Source: an uncultured Chloroflexia bacterium (GTDB lineage: Bacteria; Chloroflexota; Limnocylindria; Limnocylindrales; CSP1-4). Taken from it: DNA of 23,327 nt. The stretch spans positions 1-23,327 of the forward strand of contig CAVPPB010000005.1 in NCBI GenBank assembly GCA_963707215.1, in the 5' to 3' direction. The position numbers were made by a program, and so were the translations under genes. This document shows positions 7,924-19,968 of the stretch, in pieces (the first letter of the stretch is position 1; each line of letters begins with the position of its first letter). The notes beneath the pieces were generated by a model, which made no database searches, was not told where the DNA came from, and was given only the letters and a program-made list of their open reading frames with translations.

Positions 7924-8772
7924 GTGGCAGCCCAGTCGATCGGCCTGAACCTCGCGTACATCAACTGGACGGTGCTCGTCGCCCTCTCGGCGGGCGCGTT
8001 CGCGGCCGCCGTCCTCCTTCGCCTCCGGACCCCGGCCACCAAGGGCTTCCTCGGCTTCACGGCGACGTCGGCGCTGGTGATCGGGCTGCTGGCCTTCCTC
8101 TCCGACGTCAACCTGCCGCCGGCCCCGGTCGACTCACCGGTCACCGCCGACGCGGCCTTCGACCCGATCCGCCGTGGGGCCTTGGCCGGGTACCTGGTCG
8201 CCGCCGCCGTCACGACGTGGATCATGTACCGGGCAGGTCGGGTGGAGCGGGTCGGGCTTCTCGGCGTCGGCCTGGCGCTGGCAGCCCTCGGACTGTCGGC
8301 GCTGACCTGGGGCGGACCCTTCCCCGGGCTGGGGCCGATCGTCCTCCTGGTCCAGCTCCTGCTCCTGTCCGCCGCCACCGGCGGCGTCTTCGCGGCGATG
8401 ATCCTGGGCCACTGGTACCTGGTCACCCCGAAGCTGCCCGAGGCGCCGCTCATCCTGCTCTCCCGGTTCCTCATGGCGATCGTCGCCGGCCAGCTCGCCT
8501 TCTTCGTCGCCTGCGTCGGGCTGGGCGTCTCGGCGCCGGGGCTCGAGCTCGGTCCCCTCGAAGCGCTGGCCGGCCCGCAGGCGCTCTTCGTGTGGCTGCG
8601 CCTGATCATCGGCCTGGTCTTCCCGCTCGTCGTCAGCTGGATGGCGCTCCAGACGACGAAGACGCGCTCGATGGAGTCGTCCACCGGCCTCCACTACATC
8701 AACGTGGGGGTCATCACCGCCGGGACGATCGTCGCGGCCGGCCTCTACTTCGGCGCCGGGCTCTTCGTGTAG
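7924..8772 (+). CDS. Conserved hypothetical polytopic membrane protein (GHWYL motif), about 8 TM
   Basis: Hydrophobic ORF with AMILGHWYLVTPKL and S-TGLHY. GTG start 6 nt after a TACACT box (7912-7917). Confidence 0.8.
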   Translation: MAAQSIGLNLAYINWTVLVALSAGAFAAAVLLRLRTPATKGFLGFTATSALVIGLLAFLSDVNLPPAPVDSPVTADAAFDPIRRGALAGYLVAAAVTTWIMYRAGRVERVGLLGVGLALAALGLSALTWGGPFPGLGPIVLLVQLLLLSAATGGVFAAMILGHWYLVTPKLPEAPLILLSRFLMAIVAGQLAFFVACVGLGVSAPGLELGPLEALAGPQALFVWLRLIIGLVFPLVVSWMALQTTKTRSMESSTGLHYINVGVITAGTIVAAGLYFGAGLFV

Positions 8773-8846
8773 GGTCGAGCGATGCACGTTCCAGCAGCGA
8801 CGGAACAGTCCGCGCGAAGCCCCGGTCAGGCGTTGGCGAAGCTGTC

Positions 8847-9539
8847 GTGAAGACGGACGAGACCTGGATCCCGACCGAGCGCGACCTCGACTACATCGAG
8901 GCTGCGGCGGGCTCTGTCCACCCGGTCCTGGCGGCGATCGAGCATGCCGCCGAGCCCGACGGCATCCCGATCCTCGATCGACCGAGCGGCCGGCTGCTCG
9001 GGGTGCTCGCCACCGGTCGCCGACGGGTCGTCGAGGTCGGGACCGCGATCGGCTACTCGACCCTCTGCATGGCGCTGGCGATGCCGGAGGACGGCACGAT
9101 CGTGACGATCGACCCCGATGAGCGCAGGACCGGCATCGCCCGGGGGTTCTGGCGGCAGGCCGGCGTCGCCGACGCGCGGATCGAGGTCGTCGACCGGCCC
9201 GGGCTCGAGGCCCTGGGCGTGGATGGGGCGCCGGCCGACCCACGGCTGGTGGGCCCCTTCGACCTCGCCTTCATCGATGCCCTCAAGCATGAGTACCTCG
9301 CCTACGTCGAGGCCCTGGTGCCCCGCCTGCTGCCAGGCGCGCTGGTCGTCGCCGACAACGTCCTGCGGAGCGGCCAGGTCAGCGGGGCGCGCGAGGCGCT
9401 CGCCGGCTGGGAGCGGGGCAACGAGGCGATCCGCGCGTTCGACCGCGCCATGCTGGCCGACCCCCGCTTCCGGGCCACGATCCTGCCGGTCGGCGATGGG
9501 CTTCTCGTCGCCGCCTTCCTGGGTGGGGGTCCCTCGTGA
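8847..9539 (+). CDS. SAM-dependent O-methyltransferase (Methyltransf_3, CCoAOMT/COMT-like)
   Basis: VVEVGTAIGYS (motif I), TID, FDLAFIDALK, LVVADNVL and ILPVGDGL. The start codon is uncertain. Confidence 0.9.
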   Translation: MKTDETWIPTERDLDYIEAAAGSVHPVLAAIEHAAEPDGIPILDRPSGRLLGVLATGRRRVVEVGTAIGYSTLCMALAMPEDGTIVTIDPDERRTGIARGFWRQAGVADARIEVVDRPGLEALGVDGAPADPRLVGPFDLAFIDALKHEYLAYVEALVPRLLPGALVVADNVLRSGQVSGAREALAGWERGNEAIRAFDRAMLADPRFRATILPVGDGLLVAAFLGGGPS

Positions 9540-10027
9540 CGAGTCCTGGCGATCGCTCGGAGACCGACGCTGCCACGGGCGGGGTCGACCCCGCGGCGGC
9601 CGGGCCCGCCGGCGGCATCCGCGTCCGCGTCCGGCTCTTCGCGATGCAGCGCGAGCAGGCAGGCACCCGGGAGGTCTCCCTCGTGATGCCTGTCCACGCA
9701 ACGGTCGAGGACGCCTGGTCGGCGCTCGTCGAGCGGCATCCGGTCCTCGCGCCCGGGCGTTCGGCCGTGCAATTCGCCCGCAACGGCGCGTACACCGACC
9801 CGGACACGCCGCTGGCCGACGGCGACGAGCTCGCCTGCATCCCGCCCGTCAGCGGCGGCTCGGCGGACGGTCCCGTGGCTCCGTTCCCGCCGCCAGGGCC
9901 GCCCGTCCGGCCTTCGTCGCCGAGCAGCCATGCGGGGTCATGGGGTCGGTCGCTCCCATGCGTCTATGCCCAGAGCCGACTGGGCCCACCGATGGCCTTC
10001 GCCCCAGCCATGACCCCCTGGGCATGA
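9536..10027 (+). CDS. moaD: MoaD/ThiS ubiquitin-like sulfur carrier with a 55-aa extension after the Gly-Gly
   Basis: VRVRLFAMQRE...FARN...LADGDELACIPPVSGG, with GG ending at 9859. GTGA overlap with the methyltransferase stop. Confidence 0.85.
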   Translation: MTSPGDRSETDAATGGVDPAAAGPAGGIRVRVRLFAMQREQAGTREVSLVMPVHATVEDAWSALVERHPVLAPGRSAVQFARNGAYTDPDTPLADGDELACIPPVSGGSADGPVAPFPPPGPPVRPSSPSSHAGSWGRSLPCVYAQSRLGPPMAFAPAMTPWA

Positions 10028-10545
10028 GCGCCGAGCGCACGCGCATCCTGGAGCTGCGAGCGGACCCGTTCGACGCGGCCATCCTGGCCCAGCTGGCCGA
10101 CCGGCTGGCGACGGACGAGGACGGCGCGGTCGTCGGCTTCCTGGGTCGGACGAGGATCACGGCCGGGACCCCAGCACCGGGCCAGGAAGAGGAGGCCCAG
10201 CGGTTCGCCGACGAGGCGGTGACCTCGCTCGAGTACGAGGCGCTCGAGTCCATGGCCCTCGGCGAGCTGGAGCGCATCGCCGAGGAGATCGCGGAGCGCT
10301 TCGCGGTGACCCGCCTGGCGATCGTCCATCGGACCGGCGAGGTCCCGCTGGGCGAGCCGAGTGTCGCCATCGTTGTCTGCGCGCCGCATCGCGGCGAGGC
10401 CTTCGAGGCCGCGGCCTATGCCATGGATGAGACGAAGGCACGGGTCCCGATCTGGAAGGCCGAGCGGTTCACCAGCGGCAAGGTCTGGATCGGCCAGCTC
10501 GCTCGCGAAGGGCCCGTCAACGAGGGACCGGAGGAACGATCGTGA
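10024..10545 (+). CDS. moaE: Molybdopterin synthase catalytic subunit
   Basis: GAVVGFLGRTR, LEYEA, HRTG, HRGEAF and DETKARVPIWKAE. ATGA overlap with the moaD stop. Confidence 0.92.
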   Translation: MSAERTRILELRADPFDAAILAQLADRLATDEDGAVVGFLGRTRITAGTPAPGQEEEAQRFADEAVTSLEYEALESMALGELERIAEEIAERFAVTRLAIVHRTGEVPLGEPSVAIVVCAPHRGEAFEAAAYAMDETKARVPIWKAERFTSGKVWIGQLAREGPVNEGPEERS

Positions 10546-11360
10546 AGGCCTACGTCAGCGTCGACATGGAGGGCCTCGCCGGGGTCTCGCACGCCGACCC
10601 GACCGAGCCGGGCAAGCCCGGCTACGAGGCGGCCGTCCGGCTGATGGTCGGCGAGACCAACGCCGCCGTTGATGGGGCCATCCGTGGCGGTGCCCGCGAG
10701 GTCGTCATCAACGACAGCCACTGGCACATGTACAACCTGACCCCGGTCGACCTTGACCCGCGGGCCACGGTCATCCAGGGCCGCAAGCCGTGGTCGATGG
10801 TCGAGGGCGCCGGACCCGATCGGGGATTCGACGTCGCCCTCTTCGTCGGCTATCACGCCCGGGCCGGCCACCCGACCGGCTCGATCGCCCACACGTACTC
10901 CGACGCCCCGGTCGAGGTCCGGATCAACGGCCGCAAGGCCAACGAGGCGGCGCTCAACGCGATGGTCCTGGGCTCCTGGGGGGTGCCCGTGGGCATGGTC
11001 GCCGGCGACGATGCCCTGGCCGAGGAGACCGAGGAGTGGCTGCCCTGGGCCGGGCGGGTCGTGGTCAAGCGGGCCGTGAGCCGGTACGCGGCCGCCTCGG
11101 TCCACCCGACCGTCGCCCAGCAGCTCATCCGGAACGCCGCCCACTCGGCTGTCGAGCGCGCGAAGAGCGGCGAGCTGGCGCTGCTCGACGTGGGGTCGCC
11201 GGTCGTCGTCGAGGTCGACTTCTGCGACGGCGGCGAGGCCGACATGGCCGCCATCGTGCCGGGCGCCGAGCGCTTCGACGATCGCAGCGTCCGCTACGTC
11301 GCCCCGGATCCGGTCGCCGCCTACCGAGCCTTCCTGGCGGGCATCCGGATCGTCGGGTAG
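10542..11360 (+). CDS. dppA: M55 family D-aminopeptidase (Bacillus DppA-like)
   Basis: MKAYVSVDMEG (DxE), NDSH, GYHA, AHTY, NEA and GDD show the zinc-ligand motifs intact. GGAGGA RBS and GTGA overlap with moaE. Confidence 0.92.
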   Translation: MKAYVSVDMEGLAGVSHADPTEPGKPGYEAAVRLMVGETNAAVDGAIRGGAREVVINDSHWHMYNLTPVDLDPRATVIQGRKPWSMVEGAGPDRGFDVALFVGYHARAGHPTGSIAHTYSDAPVEVRINGRKANEAALNAMVLGSWGVPVGMVAGDDALAEETEEWLPWAGRVVVKRAVSRYAAASVHPTVAQQLIRNAAHSAVERAKSGELALLDVGSPVVVEVDFCDGGEADMAAIVPGAERFDDRSVRYVAPDPVAAYRAFLAGIRIVG

Positions 11361-11382
11361 GCACGGGCGCATACTGGCGGCC

Positions 11383-12990
11383 ATGACCCACCCGCTCACC
11401 GGTCTCGACCGGCTGGCGGCCCTCGCGGAGCCGCTCTCGGGGGCCTGGTCGTCACGCGCGTTGGCCAGTACCACGATCGGGCGAGAGCGGGCGATCCTGC
11501 GCGCGATGGGCGTCGGGGGGCTCGATCGGGACGGCCTGCCGCTCGCCTGGTCGGTCGTGGACCGCTGGCTCGCCGGGATGCCCGATGGGCTCGGCGCCGG
11601 CATCGCCCTGCCGTTCGCGATGGCCGTACTCGAGTACGACGCACCACCCCAGCTCATCGCGCTCGACGTCGCCTCCGGGGCGATCGAGCTCGGGATGGAG
11701 GCGAAGCTCCTCGACGAGTCCGACCGTCGGGCTGCCGCGGAGGAGGAGGCCCGGGCACTCGAGCGGGCGGCCCTGGAGCGGATCGATGCCAATCGAACGG
11801 CTCGCGGCGAGCTCCTGGCGGTCCTCGGCGATGCGCCGCGCCCTGGCCTCGGCATGCGCCTGCGGGCGACTGCGACCAGGGACGCCCTCGACGAAGCCGG
11901 GATGCTGGTCCGGGGTGGGGTCGACTGTCTCCGGGTCCGGGTCCCGACGGGGCGGGAGCTGGCGATGCGGCTCCTCGACGTCGGGAACGAGGCCCGGACG
12001 GCCGCCGCCGGCCGGATGGCCGCGCTCGCCGACATCGACCCGGCATCCGGGACCCTCGGCGACGCCGGTGACGACCCGGCCGCCGTGCCAGTGGGATCGC
12101 AACGCGGCCTGGCGGCGCTCCGGGTCCGGGTCGACGAGCTCGCCGCCGAGCGCGGTGCGTACGTCCGCCTGGCGACCGCCGCTCCGGCCCTGTCCGCGCC
12201 CGAGCAGGCCATCGTCGCGGCCTTCGAGCGCGTCGATCTCGTCGAGGCGGACCCCTTCGCGGAGATCGTCGAGGTTGGCGTCGATCCGGACCGGGCGCTG
12301 GCCGACCATGCCGCCGCACACCGGATCCACGCACGCTCCGGCGCGCTCCTCTGCATCGGCGCCGGCCCACTCGTCGTCGCGCCCGACCTCGCCGTCGGCG
12401 TCCCGTCCGATCCTGCTACCCGCGCTGGCCGAGCCCTGGCGCTGCAGCTGCTCTCGGCGCGCTTCGCGGTGGCCAACGGGCTCGAGCCTCGTTCGATCGC
12501 GATCGGCGTCCTGCCCGGCTGGTTGACCGAGGAGGATGACCTGGCGGCCCGCGTCCTGGCGGAGGTGGCCGTCCGGCGGGCCCTGCTGGCCGACCACCCG
12601 GTCGTCATCGGCGGCCCCGGTGACGATGCTGGGCCGGGCCGCCGAGCGACCTGGCGGCACGTGGCCGCGCTGGCCATGGCGGCCATGCCGGGTTCCGAGA
12701 TGGTGCTCCACCCGGCGTCGGACGCGGCGGAGGCAGGCCTGGACCACCGGGCTGCGGCGCAGGTGGCGTCGGGCGTGGCCGCGGGCTCCGAGCAGGGCTC
12801 CCTGCGGGGCGTCGCCGAGGAGCACGCGAGGTCGACGATCACCGCCGCGGCCGACACGCTGGAGCGCCTCACGGCCGAGGGCTGGACGTCGATCCTGGGC
12901 CCCGGACCGGCCGAGCTGGTCCGGGCGGGCCTGGGCGCCGAGGCGGTCGCCGAACGAGCGGAGCGCCTGGGGCTCCTCGACGAGGCCTAG
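11383..12990 (+). CDS. Divergent lysine 5,6-aminomutase alpha subunit (KamD)-like TIM-barrel protein with a degenerate active site
   Basis: Colinear with KamD as I recall it: TTIGRERAILRAMGVGGLDRDGLPLAWSVVD vs TTVTVERAVCRLLGIDGVDTDEVPLPNIVVD; RIDANRTAR vs KIKNNRSIR; DELAAERGAYVRL vs DKVGAEVGKYIRL; LSAPEQAIVAAFERVD vs LCMPEIAAMGAIERLD. 535 aa, similar to KamD. Confidence 0.8.
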   Translation: MTHPLTGLDRLAALAEPLSGAWSSRALASTTIGRERAILRAMGVGGLDRDGLPLAWSVVDRWLAGMPDGLGAGIALPFAMAVLEYDAPPQLIALDVASGAIELGMEAKLLDESDRRAAAEEEARALERAALERIDANRTARGELLAVLGDAPRPGLGMRLRATATRDALDEAGMLVRGGVDCLRVRVPTGRELAMRLLDVGNEARTAAAGRMAALADIDPASGTLGDAGDDPAAVPVGSQRGLAALRVRVDELAAERGAYVRLATAAPALSAPEQAIVAAFERVDLVEADPFAEIVEVGVDPDRALADHAAAHRIHARSGALLCIGAGPLVVAPDLAVGVPSDPATRAGRALALQLLSARFAVANGLEPRSIAIGVLPGWLTEEDDLAARVLAEVAVRRALLADHPVVIGGPGDDAGPGRRATWRHVAALAMAAMPGSEMVLHPASDAAEAGLDHRAAAQVASGVAAGSEQGSLRGVAEEHARSTITAAADTLERLTAEGWTSILGPGPAELVRAGLGAEAVAERAERLGLLDEA

Positions 12991-13271
12991 TGGGCCAGGA
13001 CGCCCTGGGCGCCTCCCGACACCGCCGGGATGACGTGGACGACCGAGTCCGGGCGGACCGGCGTGGCGGCCGTCGCCAGCTCCCCGTCGACGAAGACGTT
13101 GATGTGCTCGCGGATGCGCGGTCCCGGCTCGACCAGGCGGTCGCGCAGGCCCGGAGCCGATCCGTCAAGCGCCTCGAGGAGCTCGCCGACGTCGCTCCCG
13201 ACCACCTCGACCCGGCGGGGCAGCGACGGGAACAGGGCGACGAGCGAGCGAGGCAGGTGGACGGTCGCCAT
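12987..13271 (-). CDS. MoaD/ThiS family ubiquitin-like protein with a 7-aa tail after Gly-Gly
   Basis: MATVHLPRSL...HINVFVDGE...VHVIPAVSGG-AQGVLAH. Its stop shares the CTAG at 12987-12990 with the convergent gene. Confidence 0.88.
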   Translation of the reverse strand: MATVHLPRSLVALFPSLPRRVEVVGSDVGELLEALDGSAPGLRDRLVEPGPRIREHINVFVDGELATAATPVRPDSVVHVIPAVSGGAQGVLAH

Positions 13272-13321
13272 CGAGGTCGTTTCGGCTGGCAGTCGTTCGA
13301 CGGCGGGACTCGTGGTCGCCG

Positions 13322-14407
13322 TCAGCCGACCGTGTCGTCGAGCACGACGACTCCGACCGACTGGATCGGTGGCAGGTGCTCGGCGAGCGCGCGCCAGGTG
13401 ACTCCCTCGTCGGCGCTGGCGTAGAGCTGGCCCGCGCTGGTCCCCACGTAGATCCCGGCGGGGTCCAGCCGATCGACCGCCATGCCGTCCCGCAGCACGC
13501 CGAGGTAGGCGTCCCGTTGCGGCAGACCATCGCCGTGGCGCTCCCACGACGCGCCGCCGTCACGGGTCCGCCAGACGGCCATCGCCGCGTCGGGGACGTA
13601 GCGACCACGGTCGTCGCCGTTGAGGGGCACCAGCCAGGCCGTCTCCGGGTCGCGAGGGTGTGCCCCGATCGGGAAGCCGAACCGCGACGGCAGGCCGTCC
13701 GAGATGTCGACCCACTGCCGACCACCGTCGTCGGAGCGGTACATGCCGCTGTGGTTCTGCTGGTAGAGGCGCTCGGGTCGGCCTGCGGCCATGGCGACCT
13801 TGTGGACACACTGCCCGAAGTCGGGATACGGGTCGGGCAGATGGCCGACCCGGACACCCTTGTTCCGCAGCTCCCAGGTCGCCCCGCCGTCGACCGTCTC
13901 GAGCGACCCGACCGCCGAGATGCCGACCCACATCCGGTCCCGATCCTCGGGGTGGGGCACGATCGTGTGGAGGCAGAGGCCGCCGTTGCCGGGCTGCCAT
14001 TCCGGGCGGCTGGGATGCTCACGGAGGCCGGCCACATGGGACCAGGTCACCCCGCCGTCGTCGCTCCGGAACAGGCCGGCTGGCTCGACTCCCAGGTAGA
14101 GCGCACCGTGCGCGGGCGCGACCTTCCAGGGCTTGATGATCGTCGGTCCGTCGTCGCCGTAGGTGAGTCCCTCCGACGAATGGGACCAGGTAGCCCCGAG
14201 GTCGTCGCTCCACCATGCCGCCGAGCCGTACCAGGGGCTCGCGCCGACGGCGACGATCCGCCGGGTCGCTGGATCGAAGGCGATGTCGAGGATGGGCCAG
14301 CCCTCGCAGGACGGGCCACGCAGCTCCCAGCGGTCGCGCCCGGCATCGCCCTCGAGGATGAACGCACCCTTCTTGGTCCCGGCCAGCAGGAGCACGCGTT
14401 CGGACAT
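13322..14407 (-). CDS. Cytoplasmic BNR/Asp-box beta-propeller protein
   Basis: Six Asp-boxes (SDDLGATW, SDDGGVTW, TVDGGATW, SDDGGRQW, TRDGGASW, SADEGVTW). Starts MSERVLLLAGTKKG with no signal peptide. GGAGGG RBS. Confidence 0.9.
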   Translation of the reverse strand: MSERVLLLAGTKKGAFILEGDAGRDRWELRGPSCEGWPILDIAFDPATRRIVAVGASPWYGSAAWWSDDLGATWSHSSEGLTYGDDGPTIIKPWKVAPAHGALYLGVEPAGLFRSDDGGVTWSHVAGLREHPSRPEWQPGNGGLCLHTIVPHPEDRDRMWVGISAVGSLETVDGGATWELRNKGVRVGHLPDPYPDFGQCVHKVAMAAGRPERLYQQNHSGMYRSDDGGRQWVDISDGLPSRFGFPIGAHPRDPETAWLVPLNGDDRGRYVPDAAMAVWRTRDGGASWERHGDGLPQRDAYLGVLRDGMAVDRLDPAGIYVGTSAGQLYASADEGVTWRALAEHLPPIQSVGVVVLDDTVG

Positions 14408-14452
14408 CGTTCCCTCCAGTGTGTCGGGAGAGGGTACCGCCTCCGTCGCTGC

Positions 14453-14459
14453 TACCCTA
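14453..14459. promoter_or_regulatory. Overlapping bidirectional -10 boxes
   Basis: TACCCT on + (14453-14458) and TAGGGT on - (14459-14454), both TANNNT, between the divergent BNR and M23 genes. Confidence 0.4.
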
Positions 14460-14536
14460 GCCGACCCAGCGCCCGACCCACGGAGCCCGCCACGGCGGTC
14501 CGGGCCGGGTGGCGCCTGACGGAGCCGACCCATCGC

Positions 14537-15685
14537 ATGAACCACCGCCCGCTCGTCACGGCCCTGCTCGCCCTCCCGGTCCTCGCCCTCGTCTACTTGC
14601 GGGCCGCGCTGCGCCCGGGTCCGGCGATCCGCCTGGGCGCGATCGTGGCGATCGGGGCCATCGCGTCGGCCCTTGCGATCTCGGCGACGACCACCGGATC
14701 CGGGCGCGCCGGTGAGGCTGTTCGCCCGGCCCCGGCGTCCGAGTCCTATCGGCCGGTCCCGGCGGCGGAGAGCCTGGGGGGCGCCTCGGCCGACGGCCCG
14801 ACGTCCGCCCGCGACTCGCTCGCCCTGACCCGCACCGGGGAGGCCTCCCATGTCCGTCCGCCGGACGACCGGACCGGAGAGGCGGCACTCGCTGCGGCCG
14901 CACTGCCGCCCCCCGGGGTCATCCGCTTCCGCCCGCGAGATGGCGCGACCGACGTGGATCCGCCGCTGGAGGTCTCGGTCCGCTTCAGCCAGCCGATGGA
15001 TCCGTCGGCTTCGACCGGTGCCTTCACGGTCGACGTCGATGGCGCCGCCTGGAGCGGGAACGCTCGCTGGGCGGAGGCAAACACCGTCCTCGTCCTGCGG
15101 CTGCCCAGGCGACTGCCGTTCGGCGCACCGGTGACGCTCGCCGTGTCCACCGACGCTCGCTCCTTCGACGGCAGGCCCCTCGCGCTCGCGAGCCGCTCGT
15201 CGTTCACCCTGGCGCCGCCACCGCCGACACCCACGCCCCGACCGGCCGCGACGCCCCCGCCCTCCGCGACCCCGCGACCGGCCGCGACCCCGAGGCCGTC
15301 GTCCTCCGGCTGGGGCTGGCCGCTCGTCGGCCCGCTCACCCAACGCTTCGGGGAATCCCTGACCAAGTACGGCTACCACCAGGGCATCGACATCGACGGG
15401 GACACCGGCGACCCGGTCCGGGCCGCCCGGACGGGACGGGTGATCCTCGCCGGCTACGGCGACAGCTGCGGCGGCATCCAGATCCAGCTCGACCACGGCG
15501 GCGGCCTCCAGACCTGGTACCGGCACCTCTCGGCCGTCTCCGTGAAGGTCGGCCAGCAGGTCGACCTGGGCCAGATCGTCGGCCGGGTCGGCAACACGGG
15601 CTGCAGCCTGGGCTCGCACCTCCACTTCGCGGTGCGGGCCGGCGGGACCTTCGTGGACCCGCTCCGCTACCTGCCGAGGCGCTAG
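14537..15685 (+). CDS. Membrane-anchored M23 family peptidase with an Ig-like (Big_5-like) domain
   Basis: N-terminal hydrophobic helices, then PRDGATDV...VRFSQPMD (Big_5-like), a Pro/Thr linker, WPLVG, HQGID (HxxxD), YRHLS and GSHLHF (HxH). Confidence 0.9.
   Translation: MNHRPLVTALLALPVLALVYLRAALRPGPAIRLGAIVAIGAIASALAISATTTGSGRAGEAVRPAPASESYRPVPAAESLGGASADGPTSARDSLALTRTGEASHVRPPDDRTGEAALAAAALPPPGVIRFRPRDGATDVDPPLEVSVRFSQPMDPSASTGAFTVDVDGAAWSGNARWAEANTVLVLRLPRRLPFGAPVTLAVSTDARSFDGRPLALASRSSFTLAPPPPTPTPRPAATPPPSATPRPAATPRPSSSGWGWPLVGPLTQRFGESLTKYGYHQGIDIDGDTGDPVRAARTGRVILAGYGDSCGGIQIQLDHGGGLQTWYRHLSAVSVKVGQQVDLGQIVGRVGNTGCSLGSHLHFAVRAGGTFVDPLRYLPRR
15214..15298 (+). repeat. Pro/Thr-rich linker with a duplicated TPRPAATP unit
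   Basis: PPPPTPTPRPAATPPPSATPRPAATPRP. The DNA unit cgaccggccgcgac occurs twice. Confidence 0.6.
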
Positions 15686-18176: not shown

Positions 18177-18379
18177 GAGGGGGTAGGGTAGCGCGCTGAC
18201 GGGGTCACGCGATGGCCGAGCGCACCGTCGGCGTCACGATGGCCCGCCCCGCGTGGCGAAGCGCCCCGGGCGGACCCGAGGAGCTTCGCCGTCGGCGACC
18301 GGTGGGGGGAGACCGGCCGGACGACCCGGTGACTCGCCGGACGGAGGATCGCGAGTGCCCTCCGGTCCGACCTTGCCGG

Positions 18380-19777
18380 CTAGTTCAGCGGGTCGCCGTC
18401 GCCAGCCTGGAGCAGGCCGAGCGCGCCGCGACCGACGAAGTTGAAGGCGTGGGTGACGACGGGGTACAGGCCGTCCTCGGGCATCGTGAACTCGATGATC
18501 GCGCCCTGCGCCGGGGCCAGGTCGACGGCCTGGGAGCCCCAGGAACCCTCGTTTCCCTTTCGCAGGACCACGCCCTCCTTGATGACCGTGTCGAAGATCG
18601 TCCCGACGATGTGGAACGAGCTGTCGACGCTCGGCCCGGCGTTGAGGACGAAGACCCGGACCCGGCCACCGGTCTCGACCGGCAGCGGGTTGTCGAGGTA
18701 CTGGTTGGCGATGCCGTTGAAGACGACGAAGTCGGGCGCCGGGGCAGCGGCGGCGGCCTTCGACAGGGAGGCCGGCTCCCCCTGGGGTCCCAGGTACCAC
18801 TCGCTCTGGACCAGGGCGTACTCGCGCTCGATGTCCTCGCCGAGGCCCTCGCGCGGCTCGACGATGACCATCCCGTACATGCCGTTGGCGATGTGGTGCA
18901 GGGCCGGGGAGGTCCCGCAGTGGTACATCCAGACGCCGGCGTAGTCCGCCGTCCACTCGTAGATCTTCTCCTCGCCGGGGTTGATCGAGGTCATCTCGTC
19001 GTTCCAGGCGACCTGGCTGGCATGGAAGTCGACCGAGTGGGGCAGCTCGCTCGTTGCCGGGTTGATGAGGTGGATCCGGATCGTGTCGCCGACCTTGACG
19101 CGGATGACCGGCCCGGGGACCGACCCGCCGAACGTCCAGACCTTCTGGACGAAGCCCTCGGCGACGGTCATCTCCTTCTCTTCGATTACGAGGTCGATGT
19201 CGTGGACCTCGCCCTCCAGCAGGTCCGGGGCTTCCGCCGGGTTGAGGGTGTAGGCCGGCGCGTTCGGGTCCTTCTCGACCTCCGTGGCCGTGGCCGGACC
19301 ACCGTGGTCGCCCCCGGACCCGCCGCTGCTGGCGCTGCCCTTGACCGAGATCGCGCCCTCCATCCCCGCGTCCTTGTGGCCCGGGATGGAGCAGATGAAG
19401 TGGAGCCCCTCGGCCGGGACATTCACCACGGCCTCGGCTGCCTGGCCCGACTCGGCGACGATCTTGGTGCCGTCGGCGAAGGTGACGTCGTGGATGATCG
19501 AGCCGGTGTTGGACAGTTTGACGAGGTAGGCGCCCGGCTCATCCACGAGCAGCTCGCTGGGGCTGAAGCCGAGGTCGACGCTCTCGATCGCCACCTCGCC
19601 CAGGACCTCCCCGGAACCCGCCGATGGGACGGGGGTGGGCGATGCGACCGAGACCCCGCCGTCGGGCGAGGCCGCGGGTTCGAAGGTCCAGCCTGGTGCG
19701 GCCGCCCTGCCGCAGGCGGCGACGACCAGAACCACCGACAGGAGCAGGCCGACGAGGCCCAGTGTCCGTGTGCGCAT
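18380..19777 (-). CDS. nirK: Copper-containing nitrite reductase, lipoprotein, with a fused N-terminal cupredoxin
   Basis: Lipobox VVAA-C. Cupredoxin HDV...CSIPGHKDAGM. The CuNiR core has PHSVDFH (T1 His, catalytic Asp, T2 His), YHC...HHIANGM, SSFHIVG (catalytic His) and VTHAF. Confidence 0.88.
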   Translation of the reverse strand: MRTRTLGLVGLLLSVVLVVAACGRAAAPGWTFEPAASPDGGVSVASPTPVPSAGSGEVLGEVAIESVDLGFSPSELLVDEPGAYLVKLSNTGSIIHDVTFADGTKIVAESGQAAEAVVNVPAEGLHFICSIPGHKDAGMEGAISVKGSASSGGSGGDHGGPATATEVEKDPNAPAYTLNPAEAPDLLEGEVHDIDLVIEEKEMTVAEGFVQKVWTFGGSVPGPVIRVKVGDTIRIHLINPATSELPHSVDFHASQVAWNDEMTSINPGEEKIYEWTADYAGVWMYHCGTSPALHHIANGMYGMVIVEPREGLGEDIEREYALVQSEWYLGPQGEPASLSKAAAAAPAPDFVVFNGIANQYLDNPLPVETGGRVRVFVLNAGPSVDSSFHIVGTIFDTVIKEGVVLRKGNEGSWGSQAVDLAPAQGAIIEFTMPEDGLYPVVTHAFNFVGRGALGLLQAGDGDPLN

Positions 19778-19968
19778 CTCGCGATCCTCTCCGCTGTCTC
19801 CGGCCGAGTCAGAACCGTAGAACAGCAACTAGCTTGGTATTAGATTAGCGGCGAGCGCGATCGGGTCCATGGGCCGAATGGCCCGAATCTCGGCCGGCCG
19901 TCGGGCGCCCGACCCGCGCCGTGCGACCGACCGGACTCGCGCTGAGGACGCCCCCGTACGCTGCGGAC

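Follow-up and report, generated by a model that had tools for sequence, protein, structure and literature searches.

The α subunit of lysine 5,6-aminomutase, KamD (PF09043; structures 1XRS, 8T0V, and 9Q1A), is normally encoded next to KamE, the B12-binding β subunit of the enzyme. The N-terminal part of KamD is said, in the 2004 paper on 1XRS, to belong to an accessory clamp that holds KamE. Barrels related to that of KamD occur in ornithine 4,5-aminomutase (OraE; 3KP1) and glutamate mutase E (1CB7), both of which use B12 and have a domain or subunit that binds it. In methylmalonyl-CoA mutase (MCM), an inactive β subunit (1REQ chain B) is encoded with its active paralog and works beside it. 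We analyzed a stretch of 23,327 nucleotides (the window; G+C ~72%) from an uncultured Chloroflexia bacterium whose genome is 85% complete, in which a gene at positions 11383–12990 on the plus strand encodes a stand-alone descendant of KamD, here called the KamD-like protein. It is not an aminomutase and not a silent partner in one either, since all the side chains that contact pyridoxal phosphate (PLP), the glutamate at the adenosyl ribose, and the B12-carrying β partner have been lost. With its cofactor residues gone, no active partner, and strong selection acting on the gene, the protein must therefore have another job.

The gene starts with ATG, stops with TAG, and has no internal stop; its 535-amino acid product is predicted to consist of an N-terminal domain and an eight-stranded barrel. 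In all, 113 open reading frames (ORFs) were listed in the window, and most of these are frame artifacts owing to the high G+C content. The KamD-like protein matches the Pfam family of KamD (Lys-AminoMut_A, PF09043) in two stretches (93.1 bits, E 1.8e-26, cut-off 25), and a phmmer search of the PDB matched it to the solved KamD chains 1xrs_A, 9q1a_C, and 8t0v_A (E 2e-16 to 3e-14; 2.1e-16 for 1xrs_A). A profile of 27 relatives was aligned by hhalign to a profile of four canonical KamDs with 99.8% probability over 493 colinear columns (22% identity). The protein falls short of the NCBIfam equivalog for the lysine 5,6-aminomutase α subunit (NF052384), scoring 83.6 bits where the cut-off is 600. 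No match to another enzyme family was found in Pfam, NCBIfam, or the ESM Atlas, the last of which returned PF09043 clusters only.

An AlphaFold model made with the alignment of 27 relatives (predicted local distance difference test score, 80.8; predicted template modeling score, 0.85) is of low confidence at residues 69–71, in an inserted loop (202–230), and near the C-terminus (508–529). Foldseek matched this model to KamD (E ~1e-20, template modeling score 0.71–0.75), and superposition by VIA-align of residues 3–514 on residues 5–491 of 1xrs_A gave a Z-score of 36.3 (rmsd 3.0 Å, 455 residues). As modeled, the protein retains both the N-terminal domain and the eight-stranded barrel of KamD and is like KamD in fold and domain order over its full length, at ~20–22% sequence identity. 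The barrels of OraE (Z 28), to which only residues 136–517 of the KamD-like protein align, and of glutamate mutase E (Z 24) are also related, but the KamD-like protein has neither a B12-binding domain nor such a subunit. Like the inactive MCM β subunit, it is a mutase-family barrel kept after losing cofactor binding; unlike that subunit, it has no active paralog in the genomes searched. A preliminary description of this DNA had seen an intact ORF of 535 amino acids colinear with KamD and had proposed a search with the Lys-AminoMut_A profile and a superposition on lysine 5,6-aminomutase; the reading frame, the profile comparisons, and the superposition all bear out its assignment.

The PLP site of the enzyme is described in PMC3958899. 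Ser238 contacts the pyridine nitrogen of PLP, Tyr263 stacks on the ring, Asn299 contacts the phenolic oxygen, and Arg184, Arg268, and Ser189 contact the phosphate; the main chain of residues 187–189 also touches PLP, and Tyr236 makes a hydrophobic contact. The same source names the conserved Glu341 as the likely stabilizer of the 5'-deoxyadenosyl radical and assigns Lys144, which forms the Schiff base, to the β subunit. In the HMMER alignment, the corresponding motifs of the KamD-like protein are replaced: IRTTGQS by RVPTGRE (R184V, Q188R, and S189E), NYCSG by TAAPA (Y236A and S238P), NDALYGILFR by ADPFAEIVEV (Y263A and R268V), and GEDN by GAGP (D298G and N299P). Thus, R184, S189, Y236, S238, Y263, R268, and N299 read V, E, A, P, A, V, and P, and the equivalent of Glu341 is glycine. 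The preliminary description had listed each of these replacements, along with the absence of the lysine of the PPTK motif, and had concluded that the PLP site was erased. Every replacement was found in the alignment, and the residue numbers it had given agree with the contacts named in PMC3958899.

The loss extends through the clade. For this comparison, 149 distinct genes of the clade, taken from their loci, were aligned with 12 canonical KamDs (eight named or unnamed proteins and four from Chloroflexota genomes). R184, S189, Y236, Y263, R268, N299, H338, and the PPTK lysine occur in none of the 149, with glutamate in place of S189 in every one. The remaining positions are kept in very few (S238 in 5/149, D298 and E341 in 1/149 each). 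All of these residues are present in 12 of the 12 canonical proteins, apart from the PPTK lysine, which is present in 11 and is replaced by arginine in the other. Divergent full-length representatives (38–44% identity) were considered as possible links from the clade to canonical KamD, but they too are without the PLP residues, and seven low-scoring matches of apparently full length are frameshifted junk.

The KamD-like gene is under purifying selection. The ratio of nonsynonymous to synonymous substitution rates (dN/dS, Nei-Gojobori) lies between 0.020 and 0.201 across 22 gene pairs of the clade, which are not independent of each other; 21 were picked from the closest pairs (90–99% identity, with those above 99% excluded), and the other is the window gene versus that of locus L008. 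Selection on the subunit, also claimed in the preliminary description, is thus supported. Conservation among the 149 clade sequences reaches 95% or more at 91 of the 535 positions, of which 41 are polar or aromatic. By hand count, 35 fall in residues 1–150, 51 in residues 151–470, and 5 in residues 471–535, with the densest conservation in the N-terminal 150 residues. Conserved positions make up 12 of the 64 just after strand ends and 11 of the 64 just before strand starts. In comparison with canonical KamD, 46 conserved positions are common to both, including the N-terminal T-x4-ER-x3-R-x2-G-x2-G-x-D motif, ERxD, and D260. A further 72 are conserved in the clade only, among them V187, R191, E192, P268, E294, H309, G328, R350, W380, E384, R398, W424, H481, and W501.

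The positions that once lined the PLP ring (236, 263, and 268) and the equivalent of Glu341 vary freely across the clade. The former PLP-phosphate loop, which follows strand 2, is an invariant V-P-x-G-R-E, in which the glycine is retained and an Arg-Glu pair has been gained. Other conserved residues after strands are D290 and E294 (strand 4), G328, L330, V332, and D335 (strand 5), and E384 (strand 6). A quick tree without an outgroup, built from 12 canonical sequences and a random sample of 39 from the clade, places 2.76 + 1.96 changes per site between the two groups (4.7 in total; Shimodaira–Hasegawa-like approximate likelihood ratio support, 100). The KamD-like protein evolves much faster than canonical KamD: clade members are 37–77% identical to one another within one bacterial family, whereas the canonical KamDs of Anaerolineae and Clostridium still share 71% of their residues. 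The sequences record an old constraint lost, then rapid change, and then a new constraint acquired. An enzyme-family fold, lost cofactor motifs, and purifying selection together make the KamD-like protein a pseudoenzyme in the broad sense.

A word-indexed search returned at least 1366 relatives, of which the best 120 are all 51–77% identical, and an exhaustive profile search returned 577 clusters at E ≤1e-3 and 158 at E ≤1e-30. Almost all of the 80 genome loci with the gene come from Limnocylindria/Limnocylindrales or unclassified Chloroflexota metagenome-assembled genomes. PF09043 was matched in 41 of 151 sampled genomes of the class; the gene's own family accounts for 40 (of 44 genomes), and the four other families of the class had a match in 0 of 106. 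In a sample of 401 genomes of the phylum, strong matches occurred in the gene's own family only (22/23), and weak matches occurred in seven genomes of other families. The four of these seven that were retrieved are canonical-type KamDs (807–863 bits to PF09043 where scanned) with intact PLP residues. The KamD-like gene is vertically inherited, single-copy, and restricted to one Limnocylindria-type Chloroflexota family. A literature search, with subscription journals outside its coverage, found nothing on a KamD-like clade without the PLP site.

One other Chloroflexota family (loci L180, L181 [G457:C6], and L183; genomes G408, G457, and G227) has an orphan KamD of canonical type. The protein at L181 scores 807 bits against PF09043 and has its PLP residues intact, kamE does not adjoin it, and the KamE signature domain OAM_dimer (PF16554) was not found in any of the three genomes.

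In the family of the KamD-like gene, all 41 carrier genomes have a single PF09043 locus, scoring at most 113 bits as against 807–863 bits for canonical KamD; where a genome shows two PF09043 rows, these are two stretches of one gene. The source genome, within its 85% completeness, also has one PF09043 locus and no second copy. OAM_dimer was absent from the search of the source genome and from all 61 family genomes searched (0/61). The domain was detected in the positive controls G316 and G332, where canonical kamD is followed by kamE (OAM_dimer and B12-binding domains), a MutS-like gene, and CoA transferases. Downstream of the KamD-like ORF lies a convergent MoaD-like gene, not kamE, and no reactivase-like gene was found nearby. 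Unlike kamD, the KamD-like gene is thus without KamE and a reactivase, and no lysine-fermentation neighbors were seen at the locus. Of the lysine-fermentation genes, the search of the source genome covered kamA and kce, the gene for the β-keto acid cleavage enzyme (BKACE), and no kce was found.

The source genome has five matches to the B12-binding domain PF02310, all on other contigs, and a KamA-like radical S-adenosylmethionine (SAM) gene, also on another contig. Genomes of one genus have two and three B12-binding domains with the KamD-like gene and three, three, and two without it, and the KamA-like gene is likewise present in genomes that lack the KamD-like gene. Considered as co-losses with the KamD-like gene in that genus, neither tracks its presence. 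The KamA-like gene (Radical_SAM and LAM_C domains; locus L199, G000:C3:1598000-1612000) lies beside genes for an S41 peptidase, an aldehyde dehydrogenase, and a sulfite-oxidase-type molybdoenzyme. From this neighborhood, the source genome may make β-lysine, and it uses molybdenum cofactor (Moco).

These surveys divide the preliminary description. Its proposal was a dead subunit, under selection, perhaps in an asymmetric complex with an active KamD/KamE. The erased PLP site and the selection stand, and so does its remark that the window has no kamE, which by the PF16554 search holds for the source genome as well. The pairing does not stand: the canonical kamDE that it had suggested seeking in genomes of the clade was not found among the 41 carriers or the 61 family genomes. 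What it offered as a fallback, a scaffold or regulator put to new use, agrees with all the findings.

We favor, at a probability of about 0.5, the explanation that the KamD-like protein is a stand-alone, repurposed KamD scaffold that serves as a nonradical binding or accessory module. It would work without radical or PLP chemistry, and the surfaces that grip PLP and KamE in KamD may have switched to another ligand or protein, most plausibly one linked to the operon of the gene. The surfaces concerned would be the N-terminal domain and the V-P-x-G-R-E loop after strand 2. We lean toward a binding module from conservation that is no higher after strand ends than before strand starts or overall, its density in the N-terminal part, the variable positions around the old PLP ring, and the clamp role reported for the N-terminal part of KamD. 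A binding or accessory role is preferred over a new catalyst because conserved positions do not cluster on the barrel's catalytic face and the residues around the old PLP pocket vary freely.

Several points weigh against this explanation. The terms "surface" and "pocket" were assigned from secondary structure and alignment alone. The invariant charged set at the barrel mouth (R191, E192, D290, E294, D335, and E384) could equally be a new active site. As for the operon, gene order conserved within a single family may reflect shared ancestry more than function, and three genomes of one genus that lack the gene keep the O-methyltransferase and MoaE genes described below, so that the KamD-like gene is dispensable for those neighbors.

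The KamD-like gene is the last of a translationally packed, co-directional cluster that consists of O-methyltransferase, MoaD, MoaE, and KamD-like genes, joined in some loci by an M55 gene, an S58 gene, or both before the last. In the window, the cluster begins with a class I SAM-dependent O-methyltransferase (8901–9539, plus strand; Methyltransf_3, 114.7 bits). A MoaD/ThiS-family domain follows (9629–9859, plus strand; PF02597, 56 bits), which occupies residues 32–108 of a frame opening at 9536 and ends in PPVSGG. Next come MoaE, the large subunit of molybdopterin synthase and the most constant upstream neighbor (10024–10545, plus strand; PF02391, 105 bits), and an M55 (DppA-type) D-aminopeptidase (10542–11360, plus strand; PF04951, 296.9 bits), which scores 199 bits against the DppA equivalog cut-off of 430. 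The O-methyltransferase gene ends at 9539, after the MoaD frame has opened; that frame ends at 10027, over the ATG of MoaE at 10024. The MoaE stop at 10545 overlaps the GTG of M55 at 10542, and 22 nucleotides separate the M55 stop at 11360 from the ATG of the KamD-like gene. On the minus strand, a second MoaD/ThiS-like gene (12987–13262; PF02597, 32.9 bits) converges on the KamD-like gene, with the two stops overlapping within CTAG, and is followed by a BNR/Sortilin-type repeat protein gene with approximate limits 13325–14401. No match was found in the whole window with Rfam at the gathering threshold, including no Moco riboswitch, and a promoter and terminator scan of 8500–13600 gave no sites.

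Neighbors were tallied in 160 loci from two pattern scans, with duplicates retained and all from the gene's own family; 90 loci had at least 3 kb upstream, and 91 had at least 2.5 kb downstream. Upstream, MoaE is on the same strand in 88/90 loci, and an O-methyltransferase (71/90), a divergent metallo-β-lactamase-fold gene (65/90), M55 (59/90), and an S58 (DmpA-type) aminopeptidase (21/90) are also found. S58 comes after M55 or MoaE and before the KamD-like gene, and at L014 stop and start overlap. Neither aminopeptidase is present in 26 of the 90 loci. At L115 and L147, the KamD-like gene directly follows MoaD-MoaE. Downstream on the minus strand, the convergent MoaD-like gene occurs in 56/91 loci and the BNR gene in 57/91. 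In the three same-genus genomes without the KamD-like gene, the β-lactamase-fold, O-methyltransferase, and MoaE genes are retained and synteny ends after MoaE; in sister families, MoaE is present in other contexts.

The first alternative, possible but clearly less probable than a binding role, is that the KamD-like protein is a new enzyme whose barrel mouth was rebuilt as a cofactor-independent or metal-dependent active site from R191/E192, D290/E294, D335, and E384. The charged residues of the post-strand loops are indeed invariant or at least 95% conserved, the old PLP-phosphate loop has kept its glycine while gaining the Arg-Glu pair, and dN/dS is as low as in enzymes. Yet conservation at the catalytic face (12/64) is not raised over that of the whole protein (91/535), the equivalents of Y236, Y263, R268, and E341 vary freely, and no other enzyme family matches the protein. 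The substrate would be a small zwitterion, for which a D- or β-amino acid released by the presumably co-transcribed M55 and S58 aminopeptidases is a candidate; the substrates of KamD itself are D-lysine and β-lysine. The position of these peptidases just before the gene, in some loci with overlapping stop and start, agrees with such a substrate, whereas the 26 loci that have neither do not. A pterin intermediate of MoaD/MoaE is another candidate, put forward just as tentatively.

An accessory role in Moco synthesis, in which the barrel would bind a pterin phosphate (cyclic pyranopterin monophosphate or molybdopterin) or dock on MoaD/MoaE, is unlikely. It draws on the near-constant MoaE upstream, on the second MoaD-like gene that converges in more than half of the loci, and on L115 and L147. 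Pterin-binding barrels are also among the next structural neighbors after the B12 mutases (dihydropteroate synthase, Z ~17.5), a likeness of little weight, as such scores are common to many barrels. However, the same-genus genomes without the gene retain MoaE, MoaE occurs in other families of the class that have no KamD-like gene, the window has no Moco riboswitch or other Rfam match, and a gene order shared within one family may be inherited. A predicted complex of the KamD-like protein with MoaE scored 0.10 against a mark of 0.32, which is not evidence either way.

Still more doubtful is a PLP-free, B12-dependent mutase that would resemble glutamate mutase and use an unlinked B12-binding subunit. 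The five PF02310 matches elsewhere in the source genome could supply such a subunit, glutamate mutase E is a structural neighbor (Z 24), and canonical-type KamDs without a recognizable KamE exist in another Chloroflexota family. Nevertheless, Glu341 is kept in just 1 of 149 clade members and His338 in none, B12-binding domains are as many with the gene as without it in the same genus, and no reactivase-like gene was seen nearby. The pairing with an active KamD/KamE put forward in the preliminary description, modeled on MCM, is the least credible and is already contradicted: the full KamD architecture, N-terminal domain included, is retained and the inactive MCM β chain (1req_B) is among the structural neighbors (Z 18.5), but no carrier has a second PF09043 locus, the family has no OAM_dimer although the control was positive, the source genome has no BKACE gene, and the downstream gene is convergent and not kamE.

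Relatives of the KamD-like protein are named in databases as hypothetical, as TIM-barrel domain-containing, or, in many cases, as lysine 5,6-aminomutase subunit alpha. The last label is functionally wrong, and it would falsely predict that an abundant family of uncultured Chloroflexota ferments lysine with the help of B12. The clade is a clean case of a subunit of a two-cofactor radical enzyme that persisted when both cofactors and its partner were lost and was then newly constrained. It also provides a defined target (535 amino acids, ~90 conserved positions, and a fixed operon) for asking what the KamD barrel and clamp do without PLP and B12. If the protein were instead a new enzyme, an active site would have been replaced completely on the scaffold of a radical enzyme. 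The reach of these points is limited by the confinement of the clade to one bacterial family.

Among the database relatives, P0176, P0185, P0193, P0220, P0245, P0252, P0268, and P0138-P0266 are frameshifted or run-through gene calls, which have Arg/Pro-rich out-of-frame stretches or join partial M55 or MoaE to partial KamD-like pieces. These faulty relatives probably stem from error-prone assemblies of high-GC genomes. Eight longer representatives were considered as fused forms that could give Rosetta-stone evidence and were rejected, as they look like frameshift run-throughs; they contain partial M55, MoaE, or KamD pieces only, and two of the eight are without a Pfam match.

MoaD and MoaE of the window (9536–10545) are in different frames, with ~55 further in-frame residues following the PPVSGG of MoaD, and are either separate overlapping genes or the product of a frameshift. 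At L088, L115, and L147, the ThiS and MoaE domains share one open frame, as a MoaD-MoaE fusion. A MoaD with a tail after its GG would need processing. By eye, the product of the convergent gene at 12987–13262 ends in GG and seven more residues. Some divergent members have a convergent class III aminotransferase and two CoA-transferase subunits downstream (L088, 7261–8661, minus strand; L115, 9047–12103, minus strand). These genes recall amino-acid breakdown clusters, but the L115 aminotransferase, used as a query, was found downstream in only 1 of 91 loci.

Three further frames of the window deserve mention. A long open frame at 18212–19843 spans 543 amino acids on the plus strand and 482 on the minus strand; a Pfam scan of the plus frame gave no match. 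A 144-amino acid ORF (12990–13424, plus strand), considered as a remnant of kamE, is an antisense reading of the minus-strand MoaD-like and BNR genes. The first ~400 amino acids (13376–14560, plus strand) of a 769-amino acid M23 ORF are also an antisense artifact, the real M23 peptidase starting near 14564. Both antisense frames nevertheless appear conserved by tblastn, in 39/80 and 58/80 loci, respectively, which illustrates a trap of high-GC sequence.

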